A stretch of 64,000 bases of DNA from a virus, in the IMG/VR virus record IMGVR_UViG_3300027769_001114, positions 1 through 64,000 of that record; one strand, 5' to 3'. A program made the position numbers and the translations under genes. The notes below the pieces were generated by a model, which saw only the letters and a list, made by a program, of their open reading frames with translations, was not told where the DNA came from and did no database searches. Shown in pieces: positions 5,662-27,538 of this stretch; within the stretch, counting starts at the first letter, position 1; each line of letters opens with the position of its first letter.

Positions 5662-8600
5662 ATGCAAAAATCACGGGTAGAGTTCTCCGTCCTTACGCGT
5701 AAGGCCGCAATAGATGCTTCCTCCGTCGCCCTCGGCGTACGGATGGCCAGCCGTCTCTCGACGGGTAGAACTACTGCGTTTTCGCACAGCACCAAAGGTG
5801 TTCCATTCGTACAGACCGAACAGATTCAGTACGAGTTCCGTCAACCCAATGACAGAGTTCACTACGCACGACTTGAGGGTTTGACTAAGTCAGCCAACGA
5901 TCAGGCGATCAAGGCAAAGAGTCTCTCCCTGTCATCTGGCCCGGATATCATCCTGTGGCCAGAACAAGACGGTTCGTTTGACTTCAAGAAACTCGCTTCC
6001 ATCGGAAAACGTGGACGCGCCGCGGCGCAAGGGTACGACCCAGACGCAGACGATGCCGACGGCGACATGCTCGTTCAAGATGGCACGCCGTGGGAACGCC
6101 CCAAGACACCAAAGATTTCCAAGAGAGGTCAGAGGAAGCCCGGCAAGACTCGTGTTGCCGTCGCCTCTGGTCTAGAGAATGTTGCCGACAGGGTTGATCA
6201 AGCCGCGTCCAAACGTAGGTCTCGTAGGCAAGAACGCGGCCCGTTGAAGGAACGCATTGCGGGCAGGCTTGAGGGCGCTGCCGAACGGATTGACAAGAGG
6301 CGTTCGGGCAAGCCCGGCAAGCCCGATGGCGAACCACTAGAAAAGCCAAAGCGCAGTAGGGCAGGTCTTAGGGAGAGGTTCGGTGACTATGTCCTGGGCG
6401 ACCAACGCGAGAAACCGTCCAAGGACAAGCCAAGTAAAGAACCGGATACAACCCCCGACACGGCACCTGATGCCGAGCCAGATCTAGAACTTGAAGATTT
6501 TGCTCCACCGGATCCCAGCACGGCAAAACCCAAGACCCCCGTTGAGGACATCACCGCAACCGCAACCGCAACAGAAAAACTCCCCGGCAAAGTCATTGGC
6601 AAGCCTGAGGATGATAGGGCGTTTGCTATGGTCGCAGCCCGCAACTCTTCGTTGGCTAAGCCCAACCTTAAGGAAGGCGACGACAACAAACCGCAGAACC
6701 TTCATGTCGTAAAGAACGATGAAGGCAAGTTCGTCGTCGTTGACGACGAGAGGTTGAAGGCGATGGAGGGCGTAACGCCAGTCGCAACATTCAACGACGG
6801 TAAAGTTACGTCACTTGATGGCGAGCAGAAAAAGGCCAATAACAAGAAGGCATCAAACGAAAAGATTGACACTGCGCCGGGATGGGGACGTCAGGAGACC
6901 AATCGCAGTAGTGCCGAGGACAGTATCTCCAACATTGACAACACCTCCTACTATGGTCCGGCCGGCGCAAAGGGAGGAAGTAAAAAGTTTCAAGATGGCG
7001 AAGCGGCTCACCTTATTGAGTCGTCCGACGGTAAGTACTACCTGGTCGACGAAGAGAAACTACAGGCACTCGGCGTTGAGCCGATCAAGTCGTACAGAGC
7101 GGGCGAGGGTGAGTTCGTCTACGCCTCCGAGAAGCCGCCGAAAGTAACTCCGAGCAAGCCGAAGGAAGACATCGCCGTCGGCCAGATCCCCGGCGAAGGC
7201 CCGATGGAGAAGCCGTCGTTACCCGATGTTTCCGCAGACGCAAAGAAGAAGAAGCCAAAGAAGTCAAAACTTGATGGCAAGCAGGACGGCAAGTATCAGA
7301 AAGAAATAACCGCCTACGTTCGAGCTAATAAGTTGTCCTCAGAGGACGGCAAGGACAGGTATGTCGTTGATGCCCCAGGCGGCGGTTACGCCATCGTTGA
7401 CAAGGAACGACTTGACGCAATGGGCGTTGAACCGTTGTCAACGCACTCAAAGGGCAAGGGCTCATCAAAACGCAATGCTCTAGAAGCCGATGCTCCCGAG
7501 GCAGAGAAACCGAAGAAGCCGTCCGTCACTACAACGCAACCACCAGAACCAGAAACCGAAAAGGATTCAGTCCCCGAATGGCTAAAGCCAAAACCAGAAG
7601 AACCAGAGCCAGAAAAGCCTGAGTTCCCCGCATGGCTGAAGCCCAAGGATCCAGAGGCGGAAAAGCCAGAAGTAGAAAAGCCAGAAGCCCCCGAGGCGAA
7701 GAAGCCAAAGGAAGTTGCCCCGGCCAAGAAACTCACGGCAAAGAAGACTCCGAAGCAGAGCATCCAGTATCTGAACCAAGAAGTTGACAAGGCGCAGAAA
7801 CTCTACGACGCTGGCGACAAGGAAGGCGCAACGGCGTACGCCAAGCAGTCAATGGCGAACATTGACGAGGCTCGCAAGGAGGGTCTACTCAGGGCGAACG
7901 AGTACACCGCTGAGTCATTCATGGCTCAGATTGACGAACTCCGTTGGCACGCCGACGGTCATCCGGGACTCGAAGACGACACGGAACCTGAAACCCCTGC
8001 AGCACTTGAGACACCGAAGGACCAAGTTCCGTCACAACTAAGTGCCAAGCCGTATAACGACTTGAACTCCCTCATTGAGAAGGCAAAGAAAGACAAGGAT
8101 CCAGGCAGTTTTGACGATGCTGATGCGCTCGTCAACGAAATGATCAAGGTACGTGCGAAAGAACTAATGAAGTCTGGGTTGTGGCCCAAGGATTACGGCA
8201 ACGACTCAATATACGCGGGTCTCACAAAACAACGAGACGACATTGCGAGCCTCAGGGAAGAGGTCGCATCTGCCGCTGGTTACGGCACGACTAAGCCTGA
8301 GGCGAAGAAGCCAAAGAAGCCAGCAAAGATCACGCCTGGGATGAACCTTTCTGGTCTTGACCTGACTGAGTACGTGCTCAACGACGGTGGCATTGAACTC
8401 AAGGGCAGAGACCTGTCCAACACGAACTTGTCTGGCCTTGATCTCAGCAATATGAACATGACCGGGGCAAACCTCAGGGGTGCGAACCTGACTAATACCA
8501 GCCTTGAGGGCGTTGACCTTACTGACGCTGATTTGACCGGAGCCGTACTTGACGGCGCGGCCATGAGGAACGCTGAACTGGGGGGTGCAAACTTTGCGGG

Positions 8601-14600: not shown

Positions 14601-15243
14601 TGAGCAGGTGATGAGTGGTAGTGGACTCAGTGGAGGCGCAGCCCAAGGCTCGGGTGGGTACGGAGCGTCGCCGATGACTGACCTTATGTCTGGCGGTGGT
14701 GACGGACTATTCATGTCGGCCTTTGCTGGTGGCTCGGCAGGACTCGGCAGCGCAGGCGGTCAGCACATAAATGCAACATTCTGGGGAACTGGCAAGGACA
14801 CCTTTGTCGTCCTTGACGCAGAGCAACAGATGAGGGACATTGGTTGGTGGGCGCACGGACCTAACGACGGTCCCTACGGCGCACTTAACCCGACGAGTTC
14901 AAACGGCTTGACAGCAAAAAATATGGGGTCAACCGATCCGATCAGCCTCTTGGAGAACGGCAAGGTCTTTGAGTTCATGGGCAACGGAACTACGCCGATG
15001 GAACACATTTCGTTCGTCATCCTTCCGCCAGGACCAAGAATCCAGGCAATAGCAAAGTTGAAGGCGGACGGAATCACGGAGATCAACGGCAAACCAATCG
15101 AGGAGTTCATTGTCAGTTCCAAGGCCGGCTCCAAGGTGAGGGCAGCACTCGGACCCACATGGACGAAGAGCAAGTTCGGCTCTATCGCAACGCCAAAGAA
15201 AGCCTCGCCCGCAGAACTTGCCGCAGAAGGCACAACGGTCTAA
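5662..15243 (+). CDS. 3193-aa giant polyvalent protein (DADGD motif, novel repeats, pentapeptide repeats, HipA/PI3K-like kinase, C-terminal ART-like domain)
   Basis: Uninterrupted 9.6-kb ORF. A(D/N)Lxx repeats; FVIK..RELFG..YDRQGDN..PIDHGNAF kinase motifs; C-terminal ..LIKSGGQIS..DLMSGGGDGLF..FEFM..EINGKPIEEFI. Confidence 0.85.
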   Translation: MQKSRVEFSVLTRKAAIDASSVALGVRMASRLSTGRTTAFSHSTKGVPFVQTEQIQYEFRQPNDRVHYARLEGLTKSANDQAIKAKSLSLSSGPDIILWPEQDGSFDFKKLASIGKRGRAAAQGYDPDADDADGDMLVQDGTPWERPKTPKISKRGQRKPGKTRVAVASGLENVADRVDQAASKRRSRRQERGPLKERIAGRLEGAAERIDKRRSGKPGKPDGEPLEKPKRSRAGLRERFGDYVLGDQREKPSKDKPSKEPDTTPDTAPDAEPDLELEDFAPPDPSTAKPKTPVEDITATATATEKLPGKVIGKPEDDRAFAMVAARNSSLAKPNLKEGDDNKPQNLHVVKNDEGKFVVVDDERLKAMEGVTPVATFNDGKVTSLDGEQKKANNKKASNEKIDTAPGWGRQETNRSSAEDSISNIDNTSYYGPAGAKGGSKKFQDGEAAHLIESSDGKYYLVDEEKLQALGVEPIKSYRAGEGEFVYASEKPPKVTPSKPKEDIAVGQIPGEGPMEKPSLPDVSADAKKKKPKKSKLDGKQDGKYQKEITAYVRANKLSSEDGKDRYVVDAPGGGYAIVDKERLDAMGVEPLSTHSKGKGSSKRNALEADAPEAEKPKKPSVTTTQPPEPETEKDSVPEWLKPKPEEPEPEKPEFPAWLKPKDPEAEKPEVEKPEAPEAKKPKEVAPAKKLTAKKTPKQSIQYLNQEVDKAQKLYDAGDKEGATAYAKQSMANIDEARKEGLLRANEYTAESFMAQIDELRWHADGHPGLEDDTEPETPAALETPKDQVPSQLSAKPYNDLNSLIEKAKKDKDPGSFDDADALVNEMIKVRAKELMKSGLWPKDYGNDSIYAGLTKQRDDIASLREEVASAAGYGTTKPEAKKPKKPAKITPGMNLSGLDLTEYVLNDGGIELKGRDLSNTNLSGLDLSNMNMTGANLRGANLTNTSLEGVDLTDADLTGAVLDGAAMRNAELGGANFAGASLFGADLTSAHMPNANFEGADLRDTSMNGVVLLDANMTDANLMGADLSDAVMNRASLNGADLRNANLTSAALREADLSGASLNNADLPSADLRKANMSNTIMEGANLKNANLREADLESADMANVNLNGADLEGADLNSANLEGADLRDADLTNADLRQAQLESADLTGANTTGTKFDADFNAPDEEDEELFDYADLPDGEKWKSVGRAAYKQRIADLNSMTDTWFESVDDRAAIYDLGIERANEAIAERFQELSDAGLDNYEIGKDPVTNELVEISERLKAEKDAPPTNLVSNKPQSDAEKIVDESGNLVEGVSQGKAKNVLQALEAENDPSNDEAIAKLTNAAAKSEAENPTSITPSSPLPYKTSKVITDDSLKAAGVDPADATELIEPTLQLQKETLRNFISEELGISKRLGDEEMRAYLAEAYDNLGVISKIPEANKENAVLRAKVKTHLHNWDVLTGQGAYSESNSPGLTALDRFNHLSPNGQQSFLKELQGKYESDHPGDEAKVKELMDGFKKLTKPQGKKKMIPKETVEEFTANVEKEVAGPTPEPKPTKIDGPSMSIATIGNVAMLSPDEARSKGVPTLGAEDESKFPEGSIVGYLELPPGTTLRQAQQLAHDTTGEKNYLPKGYKKGDLELAEITAADGSTTAVVLNTRVDGFNDWDPEQVFPNAYGDDMPGELSNWGNSGQPLEDVTPDESSPLYGKKIISADSASINNTKPFGPGGPPKTMNENLIQAFGGKPWDSSEEALHDLLREKFGDDGGVVVMSPDGNFHAMSTKDWEDSFSKMTDSEKLGHDLVTKTPPKYVSWATSSKNDKHIDDIPWDELDSDAADEVLKTLFEEKQISELKELGFQTLGMFNVLNAQTEGQKQNVVEFFDQNTAAAEKDPEHSLNVNGDGEWGLFSVRAKGWSENGDPKQFAIALGGEDLKFALKHPTFFGQPLWTYSSMNSAGENVGEIDDAGMASEALRIAENPADMSFVANGNITGDRLASIVQEWENKLFKNAEYNPDHASKAMQDAEKRLADMNAILKDAIGDQDPKKMTIAELKKALASKTTSPDTFIGKMMETAVRLDVTKKFMATRMMAQQDALEIEQELKEMLDKNPKSIGDILKRDTQLKMEMQVASEDLSKAVAALESATTGNDIKEAYDQVNDAKARLRAAYATTKVYGDVTESHKKKFTTVFAGGEQYDLKKSSVISENAPTIEKASEIAAAIAPIMPSGTSVGIFKDDIGGYTLVKMDDAIQEGMPAPQAIFSSSGVGGIPVVDSTELMNLTTAPHMPKLAEGYQGTTNLGVNSVDGKAIGQFVPTPLSADSSPIDENHPLVKEWSQKIADGASLADVPNELLKESIWANTEGGGGGSGRFKLLSKASGFNDHGKGPKDQTQRFLDTTTGQTFVIKSATRNDQEGVRELFGNQVMQMLGFPSSGGRTAGVVDKSPNKFPSFHPEYDAEADQVPILIESSEMLYDGKPLGHIRNMPSAQQNDIIARLTPESVATGVVMDSLFRYYDRQGDNWIAVELPDGSVAYHPIDHGNAFGPFKGHKFYDKDGKKVSKGKDSPADEDELGFMFSGLDGEGAWKTAKQSMNTPERRQMFAEATINAVRRAESVDYAGEAEKLIQGQNLGGKLAGRARTSAQALEEKKGRLDSYVDPMLRELGMTDDEIAAVRAKVDAELGQGVMKASQAPKTLAPQAAAPKLYSPTPIEGEEAFGNAPAAGGKTVTLAIGQSLVDPSSIHYTTVGMSGGQTKEGVRFVAFPQTGEGKSPVVSMSTRLDFETSKSIGQALASGVDAQGNMVKILEMGSGHKAYQNSGGKWNIGPNGNPITEAASFDGKYVMAQMPDGAIVLVNYDTKETGDNYSSRGLTSVFYPDNKPDAAKVASTLSSLGVSDIGYVNDDGWKMRAAGMLARTFDKELLNSEDSMAVRLARVASEKGLTVNDLEPYHDSMGRLRFRLTDEGYKTLLEKHPKLAETTHFAKSMGTYTDGSNVVRLIKSGGQISKSEQVMSGSGLSGGAAQGSGGYGASPMTDLMSGGGDGLFMSAFAGGSAGLGSAGGQHINATFWGTGKDTFVVLDAEQQMRDIGWWAHGPNDGPYGALNPTSSNGLTAKNMGSTDPISLLENGKVFEFMGNGTTPMEHISFVILPPGPRIQAIAKLKADGITEINGKPIEEFIVSSKAGSKVRAALGPTWTKSKFGSIATPKKASPAELAAEGTTV
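8330..9150 (+). repeat. pentapeptide-repeat (right-handed beta-helix) coding block, roughly 50 units
   Basis: ANLRG ANLTN TSLEG VDLTD ADLTG ... ADLTG ANTTG, with 15-nt periodicity. Confidence 0.9.
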
Positions 15244-24187: not shown

Positions 24188-25534
24188 ATGAACAGAATCA
24201 AAGTTCTCTCGCTCTTTAGCGGTGCGGGTGGCCTCGACCTTGGTCTTGAAAGAGCCGGGATGGAAGTCGTCGCATTGTGCGAGATTGACCCAAAAGCAAA
24301 AATGGTGCTTCGTAAGCACTGGCCAGACACATACATTTATGACGACGTGAGAGAGGTAACACGTGAACGACTCATTTCAGACAACATTGTTCGACCAGAC
24401 ATCGTCGCCGGAGGAAGTCCTTGCCAGGACCTCTCCGTTGCCGGACGTCGTAAGGGACTTGATGGATCTCGTTCGGGACTCTTCTGGGAGCAATGCCGCA
24501 TCGCCGACGAAATCGGGGCGGACATCCTCTGGGAAAACGTCCCCGGCGCCCTATCTAGTAACGACGGAGCCGACTTTGCTGCCGTGTTGTGGGGAATCAC
24601 AGGAGCACTCGTCGAGTTGCCCCCTAAGCAGAAGTGGGCCAAGTCCGGCGTCCTGGTGGGACCAAAGCGGACAGCCATCTGGCGTGTTGCCGATGCCCAG
24701 CGTTTCGGAGTTCCCCAAAGACGGCGTCGTATCTACGTTATCGGATGTTCTGGAACCATGGCACGAGGGCTTGCGCCGTTACTGCTTGAGTGCGAGGGCG
24801 GCCAAGGGAATCATTCGTCGGGCCGAGAGACGCGAACGCGTTCTTCCGGAACCGCTTCGGACGGCTCTGGCGACTCTGGCGGCCACAGAGCCGGACGACC
24901 CGGAGGAGACGCGGGAAACGACGGAAACGAAGTAACTGGCTTCGTAAAGTCTCGTAGGGCACAGAGCAATACCGACGACGAAACATGGAAAGAAGGCGGA
25001 GTAGCTCCGACATTGACGTCCTTTGATAATGGAGGGGACTCTCGGGCAACCGTTCTAGCCATTCATGATGAGACGACCTGGTATACCGAGTCGCAGTTTG
25101 CTCAATACGCCAAAGACATCGTTGGCACACTTCGTGCCGCGGGTGGCACTTATGGCGGTGGATCTGAGAATATCGTGGTCACCAAGCCCGAGGTTGCAGC
25201 TTGCCTGAGGAGCGGTGGCGATGGCGGTGTTCCGTCCAGCAGGGGCGAGAACCTCGTTGTTCAGCATCAGTATGACCCAAGGATCATTGGCTTTTCCCAC
25301 ACACAGGGACTTGACCATCAGGCATCGACGACCGTTTTCCCAACCTTGCGTGCCGAGGGTGGCGGACATGCGGTCATGTATGACCCAACCGAACCGCCGT
25401 TGCTATTTCAGCAAAACCAACGAGATGAGGTTCGGATCATGCCGGGTTACGCAGGATCGCTAAATGCCGAGACAGGCATGCACAACACCAACTTTGTCCT
25501 ACAAGACCAAGAGGACGACGGTGTCGTTGACTGA
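24188..25534 (+). CDS. C5 cytosine DNA methyltransferase, catalytic part (motifs I-VIII) plus about 5 TRD-like units; lacks motifs IX-X
   Basis: LFSGAGG, GGSPCQDLS, WENVPG, FGVPQRRRRIY. Confidence 0.92.
   Translation: MNRIKVLSLFSGAGGLDLGLERAGMEVVALCEIDPKAKMVLRKHWPDTYIYDDVREVTRERLISDNIVRPDIVAGGSPCQDLSVAGRRKGLDGSRSGLFWEQCRIADEIGADILWENVPGALSSNDGADFAAVLWGITGALVELPPKQKWAKSGVLVGPKRTAIWRVADAQRFGVPQRRRRIYVIGCSGTMARGLAPLLLECEGGQGNHSSGRETRTRSSGTASDGSGDSGGHRAGRPGGDAGNDGNEVTGFVKSRRAQSNTDDETWKEGGVAPTLTSFDNGGDSRATVLAIHDETTWYTESQFAQYAKDIVGTLRAAGGTYGGGSENIVVTKPEVAACLRSGGDGGVPSSRGENLVVQHQYDPRIIGFSHTQGLDHQASTTVFPTLRAEGGGHAVMYDPTEPPLLFQQNQRDEVRIMPGYAGSLNAETGMHNTNFVLQDQEDDGVVD
24363..24935 (+). CDS. overlapping alternative-frame methyltransferase beta-type polypeptide (M.EcoHK31I-beta-like)
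   Basis: GAGAGG SD 6 nt before GTG 24363; C-terminus STLSDVLE..RYCLSARAAKGIIRRAERRERVLPEPLRTAL. Confidence 0.7.
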   Translation: MNDSFQTTLFDQTSSPEEVLARTSPLPDVVRDLMDLVRDSSGSNAASPTKSGRTSSGKTSPAPYLVTTEPTLLPCCGESQEHSSSCPLSRSGPSPASWWDQSGQPSGVLPMPSVSEFPKDGVVSTLSDVLEPWHEGLRRYCLSARAAKGIIRRAERRERVLPEPLRTALATLAATEPDDPEETRETTETK

Positions 25535-26234
25535 TGGATATAACAACTGTTTCACGCCTTGGCCTGACATGGGGCAGGCAATACGCGTCTACGCAACTGA
25601 CGGCCCCTCGCCAACGATCTCCTCGCACCATGTCCTCATTCTTCAGGAGTTAGAAATGAACGAAGAATCCAGGGCGGAGATGGTTACGCCGATCAGAACA
25701 TCCAACACGAAGGCAAACGGCATGAATGTTGGTGAGCCAGGAGATCCGATGTACACACTTGACACTGGCGGCTCAATGGCTGTCGGGTACGTCCTATGCT
25801 TTGACGGGAAGAGGAACGACGACTTTAGGATGTTTGAGGACTACTACCCGACCCTCACTCAGATGATGGGGACGGGTGGAAATAATGTCCCGATGATCAT
25901 CCACGACATACCAAAGACGGAGGCGACCGAGGTGGACAACATAACGGATACGCAATATCAGAGAGTGCCACCGGAGACCGGAGACGACACCGTTGCAGCC
26001 CTGACAGTATGCGACCTCACTAAGGGACAGGGTTCGCATCAGTCCATCGGGTCGGGTTTTCTTCAGGTCTACGCATTGCCTCAGGCGTACTCCATCAGGG
26101 AGGACGCGAAGGCTAACAACTTCCACGCAACGCCGACGGACACGGCCCTGTGTGTGAACGCACTCCAACCGTCACCACAGTCTCACCACGCTCAGATCTT
26201 TATAGTGCAGGTTGAAGAGGGTCGTAATGCCTAA
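25521..26234 (+). CDS. methyltransferase variable-region ORF made only of TRD-like units
   Basis: SPTIS, DPMYTLDT, YPTLTQMMGTGGNNVP; overlaps the upstream stop (start GTG 25521 or TTG 25527). Confidence 0.75.
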   Translation: MSLTDGYNNCFTPWPDMGQAIRVYATDGPSPTISSHHVLILQELEMNEESRAEMVTPIRTSNTKANGMNVGEPGDPMYTLDTGGSMAVGYVLCFDGKRNDDFRMFEDYYPTLTQMMGTGGNNVPMIIHDIPKTEATEVDNITDTQYQRVPPETGDDTVAALTVCDLTKGQGSHQSIGSGFLQVYALPQAYSIREDAKANNFHATPTDTALCVNALQPSPQSHHAQIFIVQVEEGRNA

Positions 26235-26406
26235 CGACGTCGTCCTGCCTTGCAACATTGACGGCGCACAGATTTCCCCTACATTACGAGGCTTTGGGCA
26301 CGGATGGCAGGGGCAGCACAACAGTACGAACGCAGTATTTCAGTCAATCATATTCAAGTCAGAGGACGACCACCCTGCCGTACTACAGCAGGTCGGCGAA
26401 GAATGA
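26227..26406 (+). CDS. single TRD-like mini-ORF
   Basis: ISPTLRG unit; GAAGAGG before ATG 26227; overlaps both neighbours. Confidence 0.6.
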   Translation: MPNDVVLPCNIDGAQISPTLRGFGHGWQGQHNSTNAVFQSIIFKSEDDHPAVLQQVGEE

Positions 26407-27341
26407 AAGATGTCTACGGTTATGACGAGTACAACGACTCCATCGCCGAGGAACTTCATCACTCGTTGAGAGCCGGCACGAGGCAGTCCGTTGGTGTCGT
26501 TCATCCGTTGCCAGAAGGTGTCCTGTTGTTTGAGCCGAGGTCGATGCGCGAGGAGAACTGGGCCGAGAGTGTAGTTAAGAACGCCCTCAGGGCTGGTGCG
26601 TCAAAGTCGTCGCACGCCGTTGTCTCCTCGGCTGTTGAGACGGAGGAGCCACAGTACGACGAACGACGCATACAGATGCTCAACTTTCAGGGGAGTAAGG
26701 GCAACACCGTGGTATCAGAGGATGGGCAATCGTTCACATTGAACGCCATGCACGGCCATGATATGCACGTGATCGCCTACAACATTATGGGCGCACCGCC
26801 AAGAGAGCCAGATAGACCAAATGGTGGTTACTACATCAACAAGACCGAGGTGACGCAGACACTTGATGCCTTTAGTGGTGGACTAAACCCGGTCGTGAAT
26901 CAAGGTGGACTCGCTATTGTTACCGAATCTTGGCCTGTTGCTTTCCGCGGTAGAGACGGCGGGATGACCGCCGAACAGGGCGAAGAAGGTATCGCCAACA
27001 CGATCAGAGCAGGACAGGGCGGTTCAGTTCGTCCGCATGTATTGACTAGAGAAACCGTCTCAGATAACCTGAACGAAGAACAAGGAGAATATGACATGGA
27101 CGCAAGCACAAGTCTCGTAGTGAGGCGGCTGACCCCGCAGGAATGTGAACTTTTGATGGGCTGGGACTCGGGTTGGACTGAGGTCGGCGTCACTGACAAG
27201 GGTGAACTCGTGCAGATGGCCGACACGCACCGTTACAGGATGTGTGGCAATGGCGTCGTCGCCAATGTTGCCGAGTGGCTCGGTGTTAGGTATCTCGCCG
27301 CTAAGTCGGCGACTGGGGAAGACCCCAAGGACTCGTGGTGA
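26403..27341 (+). CDS. methyltransferase C-terminal part: about 5 TRD-like units plus motifs IX-X
   Basis: VRRLTPQECELLMGW...RYRMCGNGVV; ATGA overlap at 26403. Confidence 0.85.
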   Translation: MKDVYGYDEYNDSIAEELHHSLRAGTRQSVGVVHPLPEGVLLFEPRSMREENWAESVVKNALRAGASKSSHAVVSSAVETEEPQYDERRIQMLNFQGSKGNTVVSEDGQSFTLNAMHGHDMHVIAYNIMGAPPREPDRPNGGYYINKTEVTQTLDAFSGGLNPVVNQGGLAIVTESWPVAFRGRDGGMTAEQGEEGIANTIRAGQGGSVRPHVLTRETVSDNLNEEQGEYDMDASTSLVVRRLTPQECELLMGWDSGWTEVGVTDKGELVQMADTHRYRMCGNGVVANVAEWLGVRYLAAKSATGEDPKDSW

Positions 27342-27538
27342 ACGACGATGTCGTAGCTCGCGCTGAAGAACGCCTCGACAAACTCCTATGGGGGAAGTCG
27401 GAAGACGCCTTCTCGGCGAGGGAACTACTCTTCGTTATTGACCTACCGGCCTTGATCAACGAGGTTAAATCACTTCGTGTTCGGCTTGAAGAGGCGCACG
27501 CAGAAGTCGCCACTCTCAGAACCAACGTCAAGTACTAG
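27335..27538 (+). CDS. small coiled-coil hypothetical protein
   Basis: Overlaps the methyltransferase stop; DLPALINEVKSLR. Confidence 0.6.
   Translation: MVNDDVVARAEERLDKLLWGKSEDAFSARELLFVIDLPALINEVKSLRVRLEEAHAEVATLRTNVKY

Follow-up and report, generated by a model that had tools for sequence, protein, structure and literature searches.

By conventional teaching, a C5 cytosine methyltransferase (MTase) recognizes its sequence through a single chain, two enzymes with two chains being the exceptions. The enzymes of the Bacillus phages SPR, phi3T and rho11s are multispecific single chains with a handful of tandem TRDs between motifs VIII and IX, a trait thought to guard the phages against several restriction systems. 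There are documented cases of natural two-chain C5 MTases and of complementation between fragments (PMC3404938, PMC2836561). The beta subunit of M.EcoHK31I is encoded wholly inside the alpha gene in another frame, its first 42 residues are dispensable in vitro, and it is said to bear motif IX, which is missing from alpha (PMC2836561, PMC3404938). In the type I HsdM-HsdS pair, specificity resides in a separate subunit that is translationally coupled to the methylase gene via a short overlap (PMC3510504).

Results

In the window analyzed here, the first 64,000 nucleotides of a freshwater virus record of ~130 kb, C5 MTase motifs and variable-region cassettes are spread over four plus-strand ORFs at positions 24188-27341. 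ORF1 (24188..25534, 448 aa) carries motifs I-VIII at approximately residues 1-200, followed by a low-complexity linker (~200-252) and cassettes c1-c5 (253-448). Its residues 4-187 match Pfam DNA_methylase PF00145 (profile 1-161 of 324, E 4.7e-36), the sequences FSGAGG, PCQ, ENV and QRRRR in the translation correspond to motifs I, IV, VI and VIII (FxGxG, PCQ, ENV, QxRxR), and the catalytic part shares 89-94% identity with relatives. ORF2 (25521..26234, 237 aa) consists of cassettes c6-c10 only and is devoid of a catalytic motif; ORF3 (26227..26406, 59 aa) holds a single cassette, c11, with an SPTLRG core, and neither of the two matches a Pfam family. ORF4 (26403..27341, 312 aa counted from the ATG that overlaps the ORF3 stop as ATGA) contains cassettes c12-c16 and then motifs IX (RRLTPQECELLMGW) and X (GNGVVANV), of which RRLTPQEC and GNGVV are read directly in the translation. 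Residues 248-326 of its longer form match PF00145 (profile 257-318, E 2e-4). The IX-X stretch reaches 21.6 bits against a PF00145 cut-off of 22 and 22.9 bits, above cut-off, in a second profile search, a borderline score for clear motifs; the segment also aligns with the IX-X region of PDB 3lx6. Compared with the related locus L082, conservation extends from residue 34 of the longer ORF onward. Profile matches and motifs together bear out what an earlier note had read from the sequence, namely motifs I-VIII in ORF1 and IX-X in ORF4. No plus-strand terminator-like site was found inside the locus, and promoter-like sites occur there at chance frequency. A fraction of just 0.07 of the sampled words is present in RNA runs X19 and X20, and a megablast of the locus DNA against cultured phages gave no match.

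All three junctions are tight. At junction 1 (25509..25534), the most likely start of ORF2 is GTG 25521, which has the SD-like sequence AAGAGGA (25509-25515) 5 nt upstream; ORF2 overlaps ORF1, which ends with TGA at 25532-25534, by 14 nt with a +1 frame change. Junction 2 (26214..26234) is an 8-nt overlap, where the SD-like GAAGAGGG (26214-26221) lies 5 nt upstream of the ORF3 ATG at 26227 and the ORF2 TAA occupies 26232-26234. At junction 3, the ORF4 ATG at 26403 shares 4 nt with the ORF3 stop (ATGA), and the SD is weak. The previous description of all three junctions as tight, with a clear SD at two of them, is hence right, and the junctions look translationally coupled. The arrangement of junction 1 recurs in the relative L002, and junction 2 is unsplit, in frame, in L002, L083 and L084.

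Recent frameshifts or sequencing errors that cut a single gene would likewise yield frame changes within a repetitive region, a concern raised before for these junctions, yet independent assemblies are concordant and gap-free. The four ORFs are found as in the window in a 99% identical IMG/VR contig, an independent 10,749-nt contig from run X9 spans 24614-27397 and all junctions with 86 substitutions and 0 gaps, and contigs from runs X5 and X6 each span individual junctions. Moreover, four diverged relatives (L002, L083, L084 and L085) are also split: these and the window all have 4-5 ORFs, at saturated synonymous divergence of the variable part (pS 0.6-0.8). As the downstream pieces are under selection and fused forms are confined to distant relatives, a broken gene or an assembly error is hardly credible. 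At 16/16 junctions in the window and the four relatives, an ATG or GTG falls between -19 and +1 nt relative to the upstream stop, five of these junctions being ATGA/GTGA overlaps; L083 and L085 are mutually close, leaving ~8-9 independent junction solutions. As a chance control, we introduced simulated frameshifts into 42 further long ORFs from the window, at 14,655 positions for each direction; a stop followed within 20 nt at 18-27% of positions, and an old-frame ATG or GTG lay within -21..+1 nt of the new stop in 15-39%. Among the five loci, window included, the split after c5 and the one before c12 are found in all five and a split after c8 in four, the window being the exception, while the c10|c11 split is present in the window only. 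Relatives differ in how many cassettes they have and in where the splits fall; cassette order is collinear, and differences are whole-cassette indels. Cassette c9 is located in ORF1 in L084 and in ORF2 in the window, and L084 harbors a second small chain of 99 aa with motifs IX-X directly 3' of ORF4. The gene structure is inherited.

The order of the pieces follows that in single-chain relatives, as would also be expected if programmed frameshifts at the three junctions produced one multispecific enzyme of ~1050 aa, with the separate ORFs as by-products. However, the junctions bear start codons with SD-like sequences, and an XXXYYYZ heptamer is present at 0/3 junctions of the window and only four times in 15 junction segments of five relatives. 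Homologous junctions would moreover require opposite shifts: at junction 1, the shift is +1 in three loci (window, L002, L084) and -1 in the other two (L083, L085). Positions 24188-27341 contain no homopolymer of at least 6 nt, another point against recoding, and no short tandem repeat that could act as a simple-repeat (phase-variable) switch at the frame changes. Recoding thus appears very improbable.

The variable region between motifs VIII and IX was partitioned into 16 pieces, c1-c16, with five each in ORF1, ORF2 and ORF4 and one in ORF3. A (P/x)T(L/I)xA-type core is found in 14 of the 16, c9 and c10 being divergent. The earlier count of about 16 TRD-like cassettes stands in this sense, as a way of dividing up a region of weak repetitiveness, and does not amount to 16 proven TRDs. 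From one ORF to another, repeats are only weakly recognizable: an HMM derived solely from units of ORF1 and ORF4 finds the ORF3 unit at an i-E of 0.04, and detects no ORF2 unit and nothing elsewhere among the 1433 six-frame ORFs of the window, so that the label "TRD" for ORF2 units rests on positional homology. For the ORF2 pieces as putative variable-region modules, homology is better evidence than the repeat signal. Beyond the lineage of the window itself, 15 loci have c7, 31 have c8 and 82 have c10, the last count being biased upward because loci were collected with ORF2/ORF4 patterns. Most of these matches lie in chains that also bear motifs IX-X, or I-VIII plus IX-X, and in relatives with one or two chains, c7, c8 and c10 lie in the region bounded by motifs VIII and IX. 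Nearly invariant, c10 (AYSIREDAKANNF...QSHHAQIFIV) is the commonest variable-region module of the family; it directly precedes motif IX in L017 and L043, and resides within the motif IX-bearing chain in most relatives. Modules of this locus are homologous to single-chain variable regions, and the earlier view that ORF2 and ORF3 consist of nothing but variable-region (TRD-type) units is supported. The model of L017, a single-chain relative, matches M.HhaI (Z 29.4, rmsd 2.0 Å, 232 aligned); AF2 gives pLDDT 25-39 for all its modules except the last, values that say nothing on the folding of module arrays.

Every chain is under purifying selection. Own-frame dN/dS amounts to 0.09-0.15 where correctable (two of four pairs for the variable part of ORF1, three of four for ORF4, the others being saturated); for ORF4, it is 0.10-0.13 against three relatives, the fourth pair being saturated. 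In ORF2, where pS is 0.57-0.95, pN/pS lies at 0.00-0.40 in c6-c8 and c10 and reaches as much as 0.63 in c9; ORF3 (c11) shows values of 0.21-0.27. The inherited split and own-frame purifying selection support the earlier proposal that the split is selected rather than decayed. ORF3 is absent from L085, and in one contig each from X6 and X7, 26221 is followed directly by 26403 with 181 nt left out; there, ORF2 ends GGA-TGA and is overlapped by the ORF4 ATG (frame read from the window sequence). ORF3 is therefore an indel module among strains in its behavior. In a set of 5.8 billion proteins, closer relatives of ORF2 are module-only and without PF00145 in 17 of the 20 best among 120 matches listed, and some of these occur on 11-14 contigs; longer fused relatives share at most 40% identity at 80% coverage.

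The strain variant without ORF3, the whole-cassette indels and the placement of c9 in ORF1 (L084) or ORF2 (window) would also suit a store of spare modules, with ORF2 and ORF3 serving mainly for recombination into expressed chains and being expressed weakly or not at all. This is improbable in view of protein-level purifying selection in each ORF's frame and of starts and SD-like sequences kept at every junction of five relatives. Alternatively, ORF1 and ORF4, jointly carrying all ten motifs and ten modules, might form a two-chain MTase of the M.AquI type, and ORF2 and ORF3 might be selected for another role, such as core modulation or competition, DNA binding or a ribosome relay to ORF4. Our literature searches retrieved no precedent for motif-less chains, in line with this notion. 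A pure relay would not preserve amino acids, yet pN/pS of ORF2 and ORF3 is 0-0.4, and the near invariance of c10 and its place in the motif IX-bearing chain of most relatives argue that c10 probably still recognizes DNA for the enzyme. We consider such passenger roles rather unlikely. A DNA-mimic role of the module-only chains was also considered, for which there was no hint, their acidity not exceeding that of the module parts of ORF1 and ORF4. Complex prediction for ORF1 1-215 and the IX-X part of ORF4 with ORF2 as partner yielded a score of 0.00, which counts neither as support for binding nor as an argument against it.

The earlier interpretation holds in part, with respect to the inherited and selected split, the coupled-looking junctions and the varying modules, but had overlooked a fifth, overlapping gene. 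ORFx (24363..24935, plus strand, 190 aa) lies wholly within ORF1 in the +1 frame, and starts with GTG, preceded by GAGAGAGG 6 nt upstream. It is open in 5/5 diverged relatives, and is present in the +1 frame at 82/82 related loci and 17/17 further ones. Across ORFx, the pattern of variable sites within ORF1 shifts to the ORFx wobble position. Over 62 distinct sequences, many first and second codon positions of ORFx have an entropy of 0, against 1.2-1.95 for the third. As judged by this codon pattern, ORFx is under selection in its own frame. Residues 1 to ~120 are predicted to be disordered and ~125-178 to form a small helical domain, with AF2 pLDDT of 88-98 at 130-170. Searches of Pfam, PHROG, NCBIfam and PADLOC identified no family, and neither Foldseek against the PDB nor a profile search of PDB sequences returned a match; the best hit of a structure search (VIA wide, Z 4.5) is on a helical hairpin and uninformative. 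In a protein atlas, ORFx falls into viral clusters without names only. The window ORFx gave no tblastn match to phages at E 1e-3. With the proteobacterial-type ORFx domain of L087 as tblastn query, matches were obtained, and the frame was confirmed in two cultured phages, the P1-like RCS47 and Pseudomonas phage TC7. An LSxxAxxGILRRA pattern had suggested a motif IX look-alike, a reading not supported by hhalign (probability 0.2% against the IX-X region). In P0064 and P0144, ORFx is fused in frame to modules and IX-X; an N-terminal docking domain of C-terminal subunits was rejected, as ORFx is a separate +1-frame ORF in 17/17 IMG/VR relatives of P0144. The in-frame fused forms may be rare variants or errors.

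Discussion

We consider it moderately probable that one phage operon encodes a C5 cytosine MTase as separate polypeptides, with the module-only ORF2 and ORF3 serving the core in trans. ORF1 would contribute the AdoMet-binding, catalytic half (motifs I-VIII) along with five variable-region modules, and would be complemented non-covalently, in M.AquI-like fashion, by ORF4 with its five modules and the closing motifs IX-X. Ribosomes ending at each stop would re-initiate at the overlapping start, so that the chains are co-produced, and ORF2 and ORF3 would, as their most likely role, offer modules in trans to the common core. Additional modules could expand the range of methylated target sequences, and thereby permit escape from several host restriction systems. 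Whole modules could be gained, lost and moved among chains with no need to maintain one long frame. Here we infer that translation is coupled and that the chains assemble and are active, and the same applies to how many specificities there are. Several points count against ORF2 and ORF3 acting in this manner. We know of no C5 MTase that uses a chain devoid of all conserved motifs, some modules of the Bacillus phage enzymes are inactive "pseudo" domains, as might be the case here, and single-chain relatives of 800-908 aa exist, hence splitting is not required for large arrays. A further reading by analogy, possible rather than probable, is that C5 MTases may act in a type I-like manner: a single catalytic chain would be contested by diffusible specificity subunits (ORF2, ORF3) and by alternative IX-X chains like that of L084, resulting in a combinatorial repertoire extendable gene by gene, with ORFx as an accessory factor that assembles detached modules on the core.

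If module-only chains act in trans, phages could widen anti-restriction protection cheaply by adding small genes singly, and the modules would offer a ready set of natural parts for the engineering of methylation specificity. Annotation pipelines would then miss most of the enzyme, with ORF2, ORF3 and ORFx receiving no name. ORFx is significant by itself, as a clearly selected coding frame, judged by its codons, that is unannotated within annotated C5 MTase genes of cultured phages.

The resemblance to type I HsdS is an analogy only, since HsdS belongs to another enzyme class with N6-adenine methylation and a defined M2S1 complex. As in the SPR/phi3T type, tandem modules lie between motifs VIII and IX, here as 16 pieces in gene order; unlike in that type, the ~16 putative modules are distributed over four ORFs in three frames instead of one chain. 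Our literature searches retrieved no published methylase split in a similar manner. ORFx, wholly inside ORF1 in the +1 frame, resembles the beta subunit of M.EcoHK31I in layout, and its ~120 N-terminal residues, predicted to be disordered, may be compared with the dispensable first 42 of beta. Unlike beta, ORFx shows no motif IX in a profile comparison (hhalign 0.2%); this motif is encoded in ORF4 and, in relatives, in the main frame. The locus is like M.AquI (PMC3404938) in carrying motifs I-VIII on one chain (ORF1) and IX-X on another (ORF4), split within the variable region. It is unlike M.AquI in its two further module-only chains, a variable region of ~800 aa versus one TRD, and a fifth gene overlapping ORF1. 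Two chains constitute the whole enzyme in the M.AquI type; here ORF2, ORF3 and, by its codon pattern, ORFx, which may be further parts of the enzyme, are under selection as well.

Organization of the split methylase locus

The C5 cytosine methyltransferase (C5 MTase) is encoded by four consecutive plus-strand ORFs (ORF1 to ORF4, 24188–27341) in frames 2, 0, 1 and 0. The source virus record (130,481 bp, 88% complete according to CheckV) occurs in freshwater and lake metagenomes, and its methylase locus is flanked on one side by a minus-strand gene for a class II ribonucleotide reductase and on the other by portal and terminase genes. In ORF1 (24188–25534, 448 aa), residues 4–187 align with the first half of the Pfam DNA_methylase profile (E 4.7e-36), and direct reading identifies the motifs FSGAGG, PCQ, ENV and QRRRR. 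The final part of the same profile (positions 257–318) is matched by ORF4, which starts at ATG 26403 and carries RRLTPQECELLMGW and GNGVV. Pfam yielded no match for ORF2 or ORF3, and the only PHROG match of ORF2 is a faint one to a PHROG named DNA methyltransferase. A 67-aa plus-strand ORF with a coiled-coil look by eye (27335–27538) starts at a GTG in a 7-nt overlap with the ORF4 stop; an NCBIfam search gave no match for it. Similar ORFs also trail the methylase in four diverged relatives with a split locus (L002, L083, L084 and L085), and this ORF may be part of the methylase operon.

The split is neither an artefact nor decay

Misassembly or a recent frameshift could produce such a layout, as the earlier note had considered. 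An IMG/VR contig of 99% identity shows the identical four-ORF arrangement, and a 10,749-nt contig from sequencing run X9 covers 24614–27397 with 86 substitutions and no gaps, which argues against an assembly error. The stretch is at least partly present in 20 runs from 17 studies; at least half of the sampled words are found in 12 of these runs, and three rows may be the source sample itself. A recent frameshift is contradicted by the four diverged relatives, likewise cut into four or five ORFs, of which L083 and L085 are near neighbours of each other. Where pairs could be corrected (two of four for the variable part of ORF1, three of four for ORF4, the remainder being saturated), dN/dS amounts to 0.09–0.15. 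In ORF2 and ORF3, the pN/pS values lie at 0.00–0.40 for c6–c8, c10 and c11 and extend up to 0.63 for c9 (pS 0.57–0.95). These substitution patterns indicate that the downstream pieces are under purifying selection, each in its own frame. The four-ORF split is thus neither artefact nor decay.

In the wider family (88 fetched loci plus the window), N- and C-terminal parts lie on separate ORFs in 34 cases and on one ORF in 47. The two-ORF forms show 19 different junction sequences; in most, the closest start codon falls between −34 and +31 nt of the stop, the distance being larger in L040 and L049. In L003 (5995–6016) and L004 (5213–5237) both parts share one frame with in-frame stops between them, the next ATG being 31 nt downstream; these loci are split without a frame change. 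Single-ORF relatives would have pointed to a broken gene, yet only distant relatives are fused and the close ones are split: the closer ORF2 relatives in a set of 5.8 billion proteins are module-only proteins without PF00145, some found on 11–14 contigs, whereas the longer proteins sharing ORF2 modules are all PF00145 enzymes (417–908 aa) with at most 40% identity across most of ORF2. Three of these single-chain proteins (P0300, P0343 and P0318; 862–908 aa) show that very large one-chain module arrays exist in metagenomes.

Junction anatomy

The three tight stop/start overlaps noticed earlier, two of them with a clear Shine-Dalgarno-like (SD) sequence, are borne out. ORF2 starts at GTG 25521, 5 nt downstream of AAGAGGA, and overlaps ORF1 (TGA 25532–25534) by 14 nt; ORF3 starts at ATG 26227, 5 nt downstream of GAAGAGGG, and overlaps ORF2 (TAA 26232–26234) by 8 nt; ORF4 overlaps ORF3 (TGA 26404–26406) by 4 nt (ATGA), and only here is the SD weak. 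The methionine at ATG 26403 is the exact point where conservation with a 65%-identical relative begins, and this onset, together with the junction starts, gives working gene models of 237 aa (ORF2), 59 aa (ORF3) and 312 aa (ORF4). An in-frame ATG (25680–25682, MVTPIRT...) lies at the c6|c7 boundary of ORF2, where the second ORF of L083 and L085 begins.

Every one of the 16 junctions in the window and the four relatives has a downstream-frame ATG or GTG between −19 and +1 nt relative to the stop of the preceding ORF; in five, start and stop form a 4-nt ATGA/GTGA overlap, and several are preceded by a GGAGG- or GAGGA-type sequence. As a chance control, frameshifts were simulated in 42 further long ORFs within the window: a stop was reached within 20 nt at 18–27% of positions, with a start codon equally near in 15–39%. 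Ribosomal recoding could also join the four ORFs. Because XXXYYYZ heptamers are absent from the three junction windows, the shift required at homologous junctions is +1 in some relatives and −1 in others, and the locus in the window lacks homopolymers of 6 or longer as well as repeat-tract switches, we infer from this anatomy that the junctions probably act as termination-reinitiation sites rather than recoding sites.

Modules and their variation among relatives

The sequence separating motifs VIII and IX was partitioned into 16 pieces (c1–c5 in ORF1, c6–c10 in ORF2, c11 in ORF3, c12–c16 in ORF4). In 14 of them, a loose core runs from a hydrophobic residue through (P)T(L/I)xA and a Gly-rich turn to a hydrophobic strand; we take it to resemble the TL segment closing the M.HhaI recognition domain. 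An HMM built from ORF1 and ORF4 units detects the ORF3 unit (i-E 0.04), but misses every ORF2 unit and has no other match in the window translated in all six frames. The proposed figure of about 16 TRD-like cassettes thus counts pieces of this partition and not established TRDs; likeness between ORFs is weak. In other loci, c7 occurs in 15, c8 in 31 and c10 in 82, the last count being biased because loci were fetched with ORF2/ORF4 patterns; the majority of these matches sit in chains bearing motifs IX–X or all ten motifs. Directly before motif IX stands c10 in L017 and L043. The predicted structure of L017 is M.HhaI-like (Z 29.4, rmsd 2.0 Å over 232 residues) and places c10 as strands adjoining motif IX with modest confidence, the remaining modules having pLDDT 25–39. 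The positional homology of c7, c8 and c10 is a stronger argument for the ORF2 modules than repeat similarity.

Comparison of cassette number, order and split points, as the earlier note had suggested, shows collinear order in all five genomes, with entire cassettes gained or lost and shifting ORF boundaries. L002 has about four additional segments, L083 is devoid of c6 and c9, L085 of c6, c9 and c11, and in L084 c9 lies within ORF1 and c7 is present twice. ORF boundaries after c5 and before c12 occur in 5/5 genomes, the one after c8 in four (absent in the window), and c10/c11 in the window only. A strain variant, read from one contig each of runs X6 and X7, which may not be independent and in which the joint has 40 nt on its shorter side, joins 26221 to 26403 and skips 181 nt (26222–26402). 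On direct reading of the sequence, ORF3 is thereby removed exactly, ORF2 ending ...VEEG-TGA and being overlapped by the ORF4 ATG in a new ATGA overlap. L084 contains a fifth ORF (5977–6276, 99 aa) one base past the ORF4 stop (TAA, then ATG), in which a short module is combined with a second set of motifs IX–X, and therefore two alternative closing chains for one catalytic chain.

An overlapping gene within ORF1

The +1 frame of ORF1 harbors a further plus-strand gene, ORFx (24363–24935, 190 aa), with a GTG start and GAGAGAGG 6 nt upstream; this frame is open in all five relatives. Among these, variable sites fall mostly at position 3 in ORF1 codons 1–80, position 3 is near frozen in codons 121–200 (5, 1, 5 and 0 variable sites in the four 20-codon blocks), and codons 201–240 vary mostly at position 1, where ORFx has its wobble base (positions 1/2/3: 14/4/3 and 13/8/6). 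The same shift explains the low synonymous divergence of the catalytic part (0.30–0.34, compared with 0.63–0.83 in the variable part). In 62 distinct sequences, many ORFx residues within 126–169 have zero entropy (L126, L130, A146, G149, I150, R153, A154, R157, L161, P162, L165, A168 and L169); their codons are invariant at positions 1–2 with an entropy of 0.6–1.95 at position 3, and the overlying main-frame residues are variable (0.9–2.6).

In 82/82 loci and 17/17 additional ones, the N-terminal part contains an ORFx-like ORF in its +1 frame, and a representative library contains 1527 ORFx clusters at E ≤0.001. Named members looked up bear the label "hypothetical protein", no library searched gave a family name, and no profile similarity to motif IX was found. 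With a proteobacterial-type ORFx domain as query, tblastn matched 163 cultured-phage records; all 25 listed annotated rows fall under annotated C5 MTase genes, and in both cases examined (Escherichia phage RCS47 dmt and Pseudomonas phage TC7) the match runs in frame +1 relative to the annotated CDS. AF2 predicts a disordered N-terminus of 120 residues and, confidently, a C-terminal four-helix domain.

An ORFx-like domain also forms the C-terminus of protein P0146, which has Pfam HTH and HNH domains, and occurs in protein P0022, whose N-terminus resembles a LAGLIDADG endonuclease by eye; insertion of homing endonucleases or miscalling of frames may account for these two. In L107 (2727–3446), a portion of the domain shares a stop-to-stop ORF with the methylase N-part, and this indel variant therefore swaps frames.

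Comparison with known two-chain enzymes

Full-text searches, with older subscription papers outside their reach, retrieved two natural two-chain C5 MTases and artificial fragment complementation. A C5 MTase with module chains devoid of conserved motifs was not among the results, nor was any account of the embedded frame as widespread. The locus would best be read as a multi-chain enzyme, in which ORF2 and ORF3 would provide additional recognition modules in trans and ORFx would be an accessory chain. ORF1 and ORF4 together would rebuild the ten-motif core, as in M.AquI. In M.EcoHK31I, according to excerpts of PMC2836561 and PMC3404938, the beta chain is encoded within the alpha gene in a different frame; the likeness is one of gene arrangement, ORFx lying in ORF1 as beta lies in alpha.
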